64,000 nucleotides of DNA from Eledone cirrhosa. Taxonomy: Eukaryota. Location: positions 30,132,001 to 30,196,000 of the forward strand of contig OZ024749.1 of NCBI GenBank assembly GCA_964016885.1, read 5' to 3'. Position 1 is the first letter of the stretch. Every line of letters begins with the position of its first letter. The translations under genes and the position numbers were made by a program. Positions 28,828 to 43,202 of this stretch are shown here, piece after piece. The notes under the pieces were generated by a model that worked only from the letters and a program-made list of their open reading frames with translations, did no database searches and had not been told where the DNA came from.

Positions 28828-28869
<42 letters not shown>

Positions 28870-28971
28870 GAGCTAAATATCTGATTGAGCACTAAGTACA
28901 CACTGAGATATATAGGGTGTCTACAATATAATTGTTGTTCTATTGTTCTAATTCGATCGAAATACCAGAAC

Positions 28972-29106
28972 TATAAAAATTGATGAGCAGAACAAACAAA
29001 CATTAAACAATCCTTTAAATAAATTAAAAAATAATTTAAATTAGATATTTAAATTATTTTTTAATTTATTTAAAGGATTGTTTAATGTTTGTTTGTTCTG
29101 TCATCA

Positions 29107-29115
<9 letters not shown>
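28972..29115. repeat. AT-rich palindrome (about 70-bp arms) in a TA-flanked cassette
   Basis: TATAAAAATTGATGAGCAGAAC.. / ..GTTCTGTCATCAATTTTTATA. Confidence 0.85.
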
Positions 29116-29137
<22 letters not shown>

Positions 29138-29233
29138 AATGAAGTAATTCCGTCGGAAAAGTCCAGGAAAAAAGAGTGCTCTATGTAGGTAACAGAGCTT
29201 AATAGTTATGTAATAAACAACATAAGGCAATTA

Positions 29234-29294
29234 TTTCATTTACCAGTGGTTTCATAAAAGCAAAAAAATGTTGCTTTCAATCATCAGAATGAAA
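29234..29294 (-). ncRNA. Type I hammerhead ribozyme motif
   Basis: TTTCATT-CTGATGA-T TGAAAGCAA..TTGCTTTTA T-GAAA-CCA C TGG-TA-AATGAAA. 7-bp stem I and 9-bp stem II, associated with 38-bp inverted repeats at 29202-29239 and 29340-29377. Confidence 0.8.
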
Positions 29295-29808
29295 AAATCC
29301 TGGTGTATTTATTGACGTTGGATTTTAAAAACCAACGTCATGAAATAATTGCCTTATGTTGTTTATTACATAACTATATATATATATAATTTACTTATTT
29401 AATTATATATATATTATTTAATCATATATATTTAATTATTCATGTTTATTTTCATAATCATTTAGACATTTTGCTGTATTTACAATATCTGCCAAACGCA
29501 ATATGCATTAGAACGTATTCGGAATGCAAATTATATGCACAAACACACACGCATATATATATATATATAAATATATATATAAAATTATTTTTGAAAAGCA
29601 TTAGAAATGCGCAACCGGTAAAACTTAAAACCAAAACTGAATACTAACCAATACTATTACTAATTTTTACTTATTCCTAATTAAACTATTTTTCACTGGG
29701 AACAATTTGTCAGCATTTTTTTTCCTTTTACCAATATATCATAACTTGTGTGTTACACCTCTATTCTTTTAAATATATATATATATATATACATATGTAT
29801 ACATATGT

Positions 29809-30144: not shown

Positions 30145-30213
<69 letters not shown>

Positions 30214-30217
<4 letters not shown>

Positions 30218-30643
30218 TAAACGGAATAGAGAATGCTGACAAATTGTTCACAGTTGAAAAATGGTTTAATTAGGAATAAAAGAGTATTAGTGATTGTATG
30301 GGTTAGTATTCAGTTGTGGTTTTAAGTTTTTAAGTTTTTACCGGTTGCGCATTTCTAAATGCTTTTCAAAAATAATTTTGAGATAGAGTGTCCGTGCTGT
30401 TTGCTCAGATCAGAGCAAACAGCACGGACACTCTATCTCAAAATTATTTTTGAAAAGCATTTAGAAATGCGCAACCGGTAAAAACTTAAAAACTTAAAAC
30501 CACAACTGAATACTAACCCATACAATCACTAATACTCTTTTATTCCTAATTAAACCATTTTTCAACTGTGAACAATTTGTCAGCATTCTCTATTCCGTTT
30601 ACCAATATATAATAACTTGTGTGTTACACCTCTATTCTTTTAA
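30214..30643. repeat. Palindrome with 193-bp arms (30214-30605) plus extension; single-arm paralog at about 29580-29772
   Basis: Centre GCTC AGATCA GAGC; TA-flanked. Confidence 0.9.
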
Positions 30644-30644
30644 C

Positions 30645-31620: not shown

Positions 31621-32306
31621 ATTTTAAATAACAGCTTACTAATGAAGAGGTGAGCTATCTCATTACATTCTTAAAATTTACAAAATCAATTGATACAAGC
31701 ACTTTCAGGTCTCGAATAATCACTGTCCCCACCCCATTATTTGGGACCTGAGAGTAGGAAAAATATGGTTCACAAAAAGGGTAAATTAAATACAGTCCCT
31801 AGTTTATCAAACCCAGATGAATTTAAACTAAGGGTTAAAGACATTTAACCCACCCTTCCCCCATTTTTGCTATTCCATAGTTAAAAAAATACCTGTTTTC
31901 AACATTAGCTAAAGGCCATGATTTAAGAGAAGGAGATTGAAACAGCCTCCAAGATTGAAACAAATCTCAACCCTGCGTTGGACTTCATGCCAGAGAAACC
32001 GGGATATGCACCGGCCTAATGAACATCTGAGCTCGAGAAAATTAGACAGATATAGATGAGATAAAAGCGAGATGTGAAAGAAAGCAATATAATATAAAAG
32101 ATGAGATTGAAATGTCGTAAACAGATGAGGTTGTTACAACATTAACGTAGGTTAGAAATACAGATAATTAGTTTCTATAAATCGGAAATATATGTTCTCT
32201 CTTAATTGAGAACTGAGAACATATAAAAGCTATTGATCCTATCTCATTGTCTGGTTGGTTCTATGGCTGGCTGGTTGGCTATATATATATATATATATAT
32301 ATATAG

Positions 32307-32498
32307 GTTTTAATATAGATGAGATTCTACAGGACTAGAACTGTTTCATTCTTTAGAAATCATCAGGATTCCTGATGATTTCTAAAGAATGAAACGGTTC
32401 TAGTCCTATAGAATCTCATCTATATTAAAACTTTTATACTCTGCAATGTATTGAGTACCTTACTTACTGTGGTTACCTCCGATTCAACCCGGAATAAC

Positions 32499-32499
<1 letters not shown>
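32307..32499. mobile_element. Palindromic hammerhead cassette, family P1 copy C (opposite orientation to copy A)
   Basis: Palindrome 32307-32431 centred on 32369 with the same CAGGATTCCTG centre; same unique tail as copy A. Confidence 0.8.
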
Positions 32500-34329: not shown

Positions 34330-34331
<2 letters not shown>

Positions 34332-34446
34332 CGAAGGAAATGTGGTAAGGAACCAGATGGACCATAACGCACCAAAGTACTCAATACAGTCCAGAATTAG
34401 CCGTCGAAACGGCTTGAGCTCAGCCGTCGGGGTCCTACTCGTTCCT
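34330..34446. mobile_element. Family P2 cassette lacking its left palindrome arm
   Basis: Nearly identical to 41069-41126 joined directly to 41215-41272. Confidence 0.75.
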
Positions 34447-38900: not shown

Positions 38901-39574
38901 GAGAGTGAGAGAGACGGAGGAAACGAGTGAATGCATTTTATTATATCTTGTTTGGTGTATGACCAAAGATATAGAAGCAATATCTCAAATAGAAAACATG
39001 CCTAAATAAAAACATATGACCGTCGATTGGAACAGTTCATAATTCTACCGGAAATTTATATGACTTCGTTTCTTTACGTGCGTCCGTGAACCGGAACGTT
39101 GAGTCCGTGAACGTGGACGAAACTGCAACAGGAATAGAAGAAAACCTAGCGACATCTACACCAAACTGAAAATAAAACAACAGTCTTGAGAAAACGAAAA
39201 ACATATTGTATGAAACATATATATATATATATAATGGAACGATCGACTTTCGTCAAATCGGACTGAGGGAACAATGTTTCCGTTGGTCTTTCCAATTGCT
39301 AATACTATCTATCGGTCGCAACTCCAGGTAGAAGGAGCAACGTGAAATAAAGTGTCTTACTCAAGGAATCGTGAAATAAAGTGAAATAAAGTGTCTTACT
39401 CCAGGAATCGAACTCACAACCTTACGATTGCGAATCCAATTCTCTAACCACTCAGCCACACGCCTTTATATATGTATGTATGTATGTATGTATGTAGGAG
39501 GTGAGTTTTATTGTAGTACAATAAAGCAATGCAGATATCGGATAGTTAGCACTCTACAGTTTGTAGGACTGGAG

Positions 39575-39905
39575 TATAAATAATATATAAGATCAAAAGA
39601 TGGTTAAAAGAGTTCCATGTATTTTATTAAACGCATTTCAAAAACAAATATCATCATGCGATGACATTTGCATTTTCGTCAGATAAAATAGGGAGACATG
39701 ATATGAAGGTTAAAAAACACTTGTGAATAGTGCAGTTTTAAATCAACATAAAACTGCACTATTCACAAGTGTTTTTTAACCTTCATATCATGTCTCCCTA
39801 TTTTATCTGACGAAAACGCAAATGTCATCGCATGATGATATTTGTTTTTGAAATGCGCATAATAAAATACATGGAACTCTTTTAACCATCTTTTGATCTT
39901 ATATA

Positions 39906-41068: not shown

Positions 41069-41270
41069 AACGAAGGAAATGTGGTAAGGAACCAGATGGA
41101 CCATAACACACCAAAGTACTCAATACTTAGGGTAGTGGAGTGGGTAATAGGAACGAGTAGGACCCCGACGGCTGAGGTCAAGACGTTTCGACGGCTAATT
41201 CTGGACTAAATTTAGTCCAGAATTAGCCGTCGAAACGGCTTGAGCTTAGCCGTCGGGGTCCTACTCGTTC

Positions 41271-41272
<2 letters not shown>
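41069..41272. mobile_element. Palindromic cassette family P2 (62-bp arms, 41149-41272) with the 3' half of a hammerhead
   Basis: GAAA-CGGCT..AGCCG-TC in the arms; related copies at 34330-34446 and 43718-43880. Confidence 0.7.
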
Positions 41273-41308
<36 letters not shown>

Positions 41309-42932: not shown

Positions 42933-43020
<88 letters not shown>

Positions 43021-43202
43021 TTCAAAATATTAATAAATAAATATAGACATTCATGTAATCAAATATATTTTATTAGATATATTACGGATGTACTGTGCTG
43101 TTTCCTCAGTACGTCCTCATCAGATAAAATATATAAATTGATGTATGACATACCGCAACTGTGCTGATGGTTCAATTCCAGTCTTGGCAGTTTTATATAT
43201 AT

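Follow-up and report, generated by a model that had tools for sequence, protein, structure and literature searches.

Whether the hammerhead ribozymes of Penelope-like elements (PLEs) cut in vivo, and why they are retained, is the question raised by a short insertion in the genome of Eledone cirrhosa. The function of these ribozymes has been termed unclear (PMC8557442), and the available text of another study describes them as dispensable in vitro (PMC11167929). The insertion lies in a 64-kb window (the whole stretch of DNA analyzed, 64,000 nt) of microsatellite-rich animal-type DNA. An earlier note on this window proposed that one arm of an inverted repeat begins within 1 nt of the predicted cleavage site of a minus-strand hammerhead and may have been copied from a self-cleaved RNA. 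Short fold-back insertions, nine in the 64 kb, record where copying stops, and a genome-wide count of their junctions relative to the cut site would bear directly on the question.

The 38-bp inverted arms described in that note were confirmed, with positions 29202-29239 and 29340-29377 complementary at 38 of 38 positions (self-BLAST E 4e-12); the outer 3 nt of the arms are also common to the (TA)n run. The locus is ordered as (TA)n, tail, arm, center, arm and (TA)n. A (TA)n target microsatellite at 29112-29137 borders a 64-nt tail (29138-29201, minus strand), which is homologous to the tails of some other elements in the window and accompanies the long arm only. Next come the outer 38 nt of the long arm (29202-29239, minus strand), lying 3' of the predicted cut, and, across the center, the outer 38 nt of the short, inverted and tail-less arm (29340-29377, plus strand). 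The target microsatellite resumes at 29375-29388, its first 3 nt belonging to the arm as well, and the (TA)n on both flanks masks any target-site duplication. The whole insert, 29138-29377, is 240 nt long and non-coding; a search of it for ORFs found none. The claim that arm and ribozyme are parts of a single retroelement insertion also stands.

Two other element types were considered and rejected. In a MITE or TIR DNA transposon the inverted repeats would be terminal at both ends; here the left arm is flanked externally by the 64-nt tail, which other families conserve as well. A non-LTR retrozyme needs two or more hammerhead-bearing units in tandem, and 29138-29377 contains one hammerhead motif and no tandem array. 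The insert resembles non-LTR retrozymes in being non-autonomous and PLE-derived and in its type I hammerhead, but it differs from them in having no head-to-tail tandem of hammerhead units (bioRxiv 10.64898/2026.07.22.740005, available text).

The minus-strand hammerhead motif (29234-29294), which the earlier note had predicted to cut after GUA, is supported by its core and stems. The core CUGAUGA starts at 29287 (29287-29281), GAAA occupies 29253-29250, and the GUA triplet ends at 29241, placing the predicted cut between 29241 and 29240. Stem I pairs 29288-29294 with 29234-29240 (7 bp) and is open, as in type I hammerheads, while stem II has 9 bp. Stem III is a palindromic 9 nt (29250-29242) that forms 3 bp including A15.1-U16.1; it is self-complementary, with 8 of 9 pairs and a predicted -8.2 kcal/mol as a dimer. 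The motif agrees with the core rule C3 U4 G5 A6 N7 G8 A9, G12 A13 A14 A15, U16 H17. At 10.1/11.1 it carries U10.1.U11.1 (29280/29254) in the absence of a Watson-Crick pair, and U.U at this position is a tolerated natural variant (PMC3088659, available text). The minimum-free-energy fold is a three-way junction, with predicted pair probabilities of about 0.6, 0.95 and 0.33 for stems I, II and III.

A descriptor search returned six hammerhead matches in the window, all inside fold-back elements, against one match in 30 block shuffles, the descriptor having been composed after the motifs had been seen. For this descriptor, the predicted type I motif exceeds chance. An Rfam scan for hammerheads gave none at the gathering threshold and none among its 74 matches at E<=10, and for a 70-nt hammerhead fragment the folding energy lies within the spread of its shuffles (z -0.92; 35/200 shuffles as good). 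A lone hammerhead-core-like motif at 43123 (43018-43193, minus strand) failed the stem tests.

The position of the arm ends depends on where the element folds back. A second inverted repeat was found by BLAST at 29306-29347, and a palindrome scan identified a loop-less palindrome at 29314-29339, with 12 of 13 bp paired and its center between 29326 and 29327. Comparable loop-less palindromes occur at 8 sites in 55,688 non-simple positions (9/2000 shuffles); four are centers of long fold-back elements, one is the present site and three are short AT-rich cases. Global alignment about this center gives 50/51 matches (1 mismatch) and one 74-nt gap, which takes the ribozyme core out of the short arm. 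The 74 nt present in the long arm only are 29240-29313 on the minus strand (29239-29312 in an alternative register). Judging from sequence, the true fold-back center of the element is likely the point between 29326 and 29327. The arm goes on 13 nt inward to this point, so that 29340 is most simply a putative junction inside a 51-nt arm, left by an internal deletion or a template switch, and not a 5' end. The earlier note had the inverted arm start at 29340, as the 5' end of an RNA. The 38-nt match does begin there, but the palindrome, which had been overlooked, probably carries the arm further inward, which makes a 5' end an improbable reading of this position.

A literal form of the earlier proposal would treat 29314-29339 as a native hairpin, with the short arm running 38 nt to the cleaved 5' end and joined at the hairpin base. 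Native palindromes have been reported at pLTR 5' ends, with 18 bp in Pen2_Av and 38 bp in Pen3a (PMC3846280, available text), and the one mismatch of the locus lies in the inner palindrome, with none in the outer arms. However, the palindrome is dyad-symmetric right to its center, like other fold-back centers. Such a hairpin would be a long spacer, found in no other element of the nine (the centers of the other eight tail-plus-arms elements have none), and the long copy would have to end precisely at the hairpin base. We consider this form improbable and infer that the inner palindrome is likely the fold-back center. A fold-back directly through stem I would likewise place the start of an arm at the cut site, but the spacer is 41 nt longer than it predicts, and we rejected it.

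Our preferred explanation, at a probability of about 0.55 (a judgement and not a computed value, as for every explanation weighed here), is that a Hydra-type PLE inserted head to head into (TA)n and that the short arm lost its 74-nt core by a homology-guided skip for which RNA cleavage is not required. A head-to-head inverted truncated copy with a junction palindrome, a tail at one end and a (TA)n target is the form taken by EN+ PLEs (PMC8557442, PMC3846280), and inverted junction palindromes, tails and microhomology deletions have been reported for PLEs (PMC3846280). By analogy with published work on PLEs, the (TA)n would be cut by a trans-acting PLE RT/GIY-YIG protein, copying would begin at two RNA sites, one beyond a hairpin in the tail and one just before it, and the two copies would be joined at a self-complementary T4A4-type site. 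For the Anolis element PAc, the available text describes a tail that reflects two RT start sites, ribozyme mutants that insert normally and uncut RNA as the main substrate (PMC11167929). The step that we add here is that the polymerase would have slipped from 29232-29240 to 29306-29313 with the loss of one base, either as RT met the folded three-way junction or during later DNA repair or replication of an unstable 125-bp palindrome. Counting against this reading, the usual product of palindrome instability is not a deletion inside one arm with the 13-bp tip left intact. Long palindromes tend to break and delete (PMC7999016).

The sequence itself shows a tail on one side only, a loop-less palindrome at which the arms meet, a hammerhead motif in the long arm, and a 74-nt gap in the short arm that the best direct repeat of the arm brackets. 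Scoring end-anchored homology for every possible deletion of at least 20 nt within the long arm (4560 in all) ranked 29232-29240 with 29306-29313 (plus strand) first and as the sole pair with score 8, identical at 8 of 9 nt with one gap. This repeat ends exactly at the cut. By its definition, the 3' strand of stem I begins at the cut, and this strand happens to coincide with the repeat; the junction therefore falls at the cut. It follows that a homology-guided skip and a run-off from cleaved RNA predict the same junction.

Several observations count against the skip. The junction has an exact microhomology of 1 nt only and is one base shorter than the ideal slip product, or the ideal run-off product; 55 further pairs score 7/9; and an 8/9 match to the 9-mer starting at the cut is itself a 2-3% event (168/5000 shuffles, 82/4000 window tiles). 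By our own estimate, homology alone would pick the junction site perhaps 5-15% of the time. The skip also depends on the inner palindrome being the fold-back center, the one clear post-insertion deletion in the window (at 34331) removed the center instead, and the relatives compared below are other families and not paralogs.

The inner end of the short arm is the equivalent of 29239, or of 29238, since one base can be assigned to either side, and its offset from the cut is accordingly +1 or +2. The claim that the arm starts within 1 nt of the cut thus holds in one register and is exceeded by a base in the other. Deletions with an end in the same 4-nt window make up 304 of the 4560 (6.7%), or 34% over six elements, and the closeness of the junction to the cut weakly exceeds chance. 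A cleavage footprint at the 29340 junction, with n=1, is possible, at well below even odds.

Such a footprint could arise by a template jump. RT would start just before the tail, run off at the self-cleaved 5' end after 39 nt with one base lost, re-anneal through the 8/9 match to the upstream fragment or to uncut RNA, and copy 13 nt more before the two copies were joined between 29326 and 29327. The junction at +1 or +2 from the predicted cut, together with intact core nucleotides, is consistent with this route, as is the self-complementary stem III, a property that dimer cleavage in tandem PLE RNA requires. The PAc hammerhead cleaves in the presence of its protein (PMC11167929), and in R2 elements ribozyme cut sites can fix genomic junctions with the use of chance microhomology (PMC3774820). 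On the other side, the junction is one base off, no relative breaks at the cut (0/5, see below), chance closeness is 6.7% per element, and the motif combines U10.1.U11.1 with a weak monomer stem III (pair probability 0.33). This route also requires RNA as the template for the short arm; under the self-priming model the short arm would be a copy of the first arm (PMC3846280). For PAc, the available text places no junction at the hammerhead cut site and describes RNA-seq reads ending at the cut as absent, while the ribozyme cleaves when protein is present (PMC11167929). Cervera and de la Pena (2014, PMC4209133) describe minimal metazoan PLE hammerheads as showing no activity in monomeric form and weak activity in dimeric form. 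We hold this route to be doubtful. The proposal that the second arm was copied from self-cleaved RNA thus keeps its starting point, a junction that sits at the predicted cut, and faces a rival account free of cleavage, which the microhomology ending at the cut provides.

On a tentative view, then, the short arm may be a fossil cDNA of hammerhead-cleaved PLE RNA, from whose cut end RT ran off and jumped the break. If so, it would offer genomic evidence, the first of its kind, for in vivo cleavage by minimal PLE hammerheads in the course of retrotransposition, at a frequency countable across thousands of copies. Cut-site junctions would then be expected in a minority of Hydra-type fold-backs, and the tail hairpin would mark an RT start. 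A literature search of partial coverage yielded no account of PLE junctions located at hammerhead cut sites.

To compare breakpoints with the cut site, as the earlier note had suggested, we used the other insertions in the window. Of the 62 segments measuring 50-900 nt that lie between (TA)n runs, nine have the tail-arm-center-arm form, ordered as (TA)n-tail-arm-arm-(TA)n, located at 16709 (A1), 21020 (A2), 27646, 28867, 29138 (B, the present element), 30215, 32306 (A3), 39497 (C) and 41070 (D). Most of the nine show few differences between their arms. Measured upstream from the cut, the centers of A1, A2, A3, C and D are 41, 44, 41, 117 and 44 nt away, and the cut site is present on both arms. 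Of the five elements besides B that have a hammerhead or the 3' half of one, 0 have their junction at the cut (1/6 counting B). This count represents about 4 independent events, as A1 and A3 have a common center; it includes D with only the 3' half of the motif recognizable and omits the elements at 27644, 28867 and 30208, in which the descriptors find no hammerhead. These five relatives, which are distant families within the window and not paralogs of B, argue against a general rule that breakpoints fall at the cut site. No same-family copy of 29138-29377 was found in the 64-kb window, where the next BLAST match is 17 nt (E 0.003), and searching GTDB genomes for an exact 24-nt match returned 0, the outcome to be expected of a repeat from an animal.

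The other elements have features of their own. Families A and C (16709-16905, 21020-21220, 32300-32499 and 39497-39905) carry an intact-looking hammerhead on both arms, RNA across these fold-backs would form a long hairpin, and the A-family centers are placed within stem I, on its 5' strand, a few nt 5' of the core. Family D (41070-41275, 34331-34446 and 43719-43892) retains the 3' half of a hammerhead, in which stem III has 5 bp and the loop is palindromic, and its CUGANGA core is not recognizable. The copy at 34331-34446 lacks 87 nt of 41070-41273, including the fold-back center, and 41070 lacks 28 nt found in 43719; on sequence grounds, these internal deletions are unrelated to cleavage, and their occurrence in this class of element favors the skip, as do the relatives that read through the cut. 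The elements at 27644-27900, 28867-29115 and 30208-30644 have the tail-plus-palindrome form with arms of 109, about 70 and 202 nt, with no hammerhead or tail hairpin detected, and a truncated version of the 30208 element occupies 29581-29772.

The ends of the 74-nt gap also bear on the possibility that the ribozyme excised itself, by cuts at its own site and at an upstream GUC (29316-29314, minus strand), with the flanks ligated and the RNA then retrotransposed. Both gap ends do lie at NUH-type triplets, each followed by a stem-I-like strand. However, the alternative type III-like fold is predicted at -1.5 against -9.9 kcal/mol, with a pair probability of 0.0, the predicted product is one base longer than that observed, and the wider likeness of the two sites is not significant (206/2000 shuffles). 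We regard self-excision as extremely improbable. On the same lack of significant similarity, we also rejected the idea that the upstream region derives from a tandemly duplicated and since decayed 3' half of the hammerhead.

The tail provides a second line of comparison. The tail of B is homologous to those of A1 and A3 (0/1000 shuffles each) and weakly to that of A2 (28/1000 shuffles), and shuffle tests against the tails of five other window elements gave no significant homology. A MAFFT alignment of six elements misaligned the hammerheads and was used for tail similarity only. The tail of B opens with a bulged hairpin (29178-29198, minus strand), with a 4-bp stem, a 2-nt bulge, a 3-bp stem and a loop, that begins 4 nt past the short-arm end. 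Tails that start with such a bulged hairpin are those of A1, A2, A3, B, C and the D-family copy at 43719; inner stems differ among elements yet stay paired, and are thus covarying. In 6 of 6 elements the short arm ends 0-6 nt ahead of this conserved hairpin. A pattern search, with the pattern constructed after the hairpins had been seen, gave 8 matches in all and 6 with an inner stem of at least 3 bp, against 0 in 50 shuffles; tail hairpins are positioned at 16770, 21082, 29198, 39575, 41141 and 43777 on the minus strand and at 32438 on the plus strand. A weak tail-hairpin match also occurs at 6785-6997 (minus strand), a segment between (TA)n runs with a 15-nt tandem duplication.

Among published consensus sequences, the same hairpin can be seen by eye in Hydra-2_Amil, in Hydra-2_Ajap and at the 5' end of Hydra-1_Ajap, and a 14-nt word at 29172-29185 is identical, again by eye, to the 3' end of Hydra-2_Ajap. 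The hairpin is likely an RT-binding or initiation signal. Covarying, and present in four families of the window as well as in three Hydra consensus sequences from the literature, it is a concrete candidate cis signal for mobilization, and a literature search of partial coverage found no report of it.

Perfect inverted repeats can arise as sequencing artifacts. An assembly or chimeric-read artifact, or unrelated chance repeats, would have to account for nine elements with the same ordered form, most with few arm differences, and for short-arm ends that stop just ahead of a conserved hairpin in every one of the six elements compared. We find this very improbable.

Taken as an element, B is likely an ordinary PLE remnant of a known type with a suggestive junction. 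It looks like the Hydra type from the likeness of its ribozyme and tail, with no ORF left to show RT or EN motifs. Like the Hydra-clade PLEs (Craig et al. 2021, PMC8557442), it has a (TA)n target and a hammerhead near the 3' end; (TA)n targeting is also found in other PLE clades. By our own count in File S2 of that study, U10.1.U11.1 is shared with 14 of 25 Hydra-clade families, where it is the commonest state, and a 9-nt palindromic stem III with 19 of 25. Compared by eye, the stem III of B and that of Hydra-1_oBim differ by a single loop base (PMC8557442). In contrast to Hydra-clade PLEs, B has a longer stem II, a short arm with an internal gap and no remaining ORF (PMC8557442), whereas the marks of the clade are ORF-borne (RWK and DKT motifs, a CxCX5C linker and GIY-YIG without CCHH). 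Its tail, at 64 nt, also differs from the 30-40 bp quoted for PLEs.

In its inverted copy, junction palindrome, one-end tail and microhomology deletions, B resembles insertions of Adineta Pen2a/Pen3a (PMC3846280) and Anolis PAc (PMC11167929) but differs from them in that the whole insert is so short and non-coding. The type I form, long stem II and short palindromic stem III match minimal PLE hammerheads, although B lacks the G10.1-C11.1 pair that is highly conserved among them; opposite-strand hammerhead pairs 100-700 bp apart in Schistosoma offer a further likeness (PMC4209133, available text). Penelope-13_HM has a hammerhead on both its direct and its inverted copy (PMC8557442 supplement). 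The HDV-like ribozyme of R2 is a precedent for a cut site that sets genomic junctions, but there the cut is the element 5' end in all full-length copies, whereas B has one internal junction and belongs to another ribozyme and element class (PMC3774820, available text).

Elsewhere in the window, 26435-27452 (plus strand) contains the 3' end of a PLE-like ORF, 188 aa from stop to stop, with a Cys-rich linker and a GIY-YIG-like region by eye. Pfam and PDB searches with the ORF (26435-27001) gave no match, and its ESM Atlas neighbors at 0.97 include one set with PF01541 in 13% of members. After the ORF, near 27198-27240, comes a degenerate hammerhead-like motif, and the segment ends in (TA)n. An abundant 190-nt repeat with A- and B-box-like motifs, presumably a tRNA-derived SINE, occurs at 28510-28720 and in about a dozen further copies (e.g. 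13069, 13775, 18139, 48638 and 55979), some of them as inverted or tandem pairs. A non-LTR retrotransposon RT ORF of 815 aa lies at 896-3343 (minus strand; RVT_1 E 2e-19), with a broken second copy, 95% identical, at 50103-51759. Finally, 13960-15663 is a minisatellite of 58 copies of a 29-nt unit with strong strand skew.
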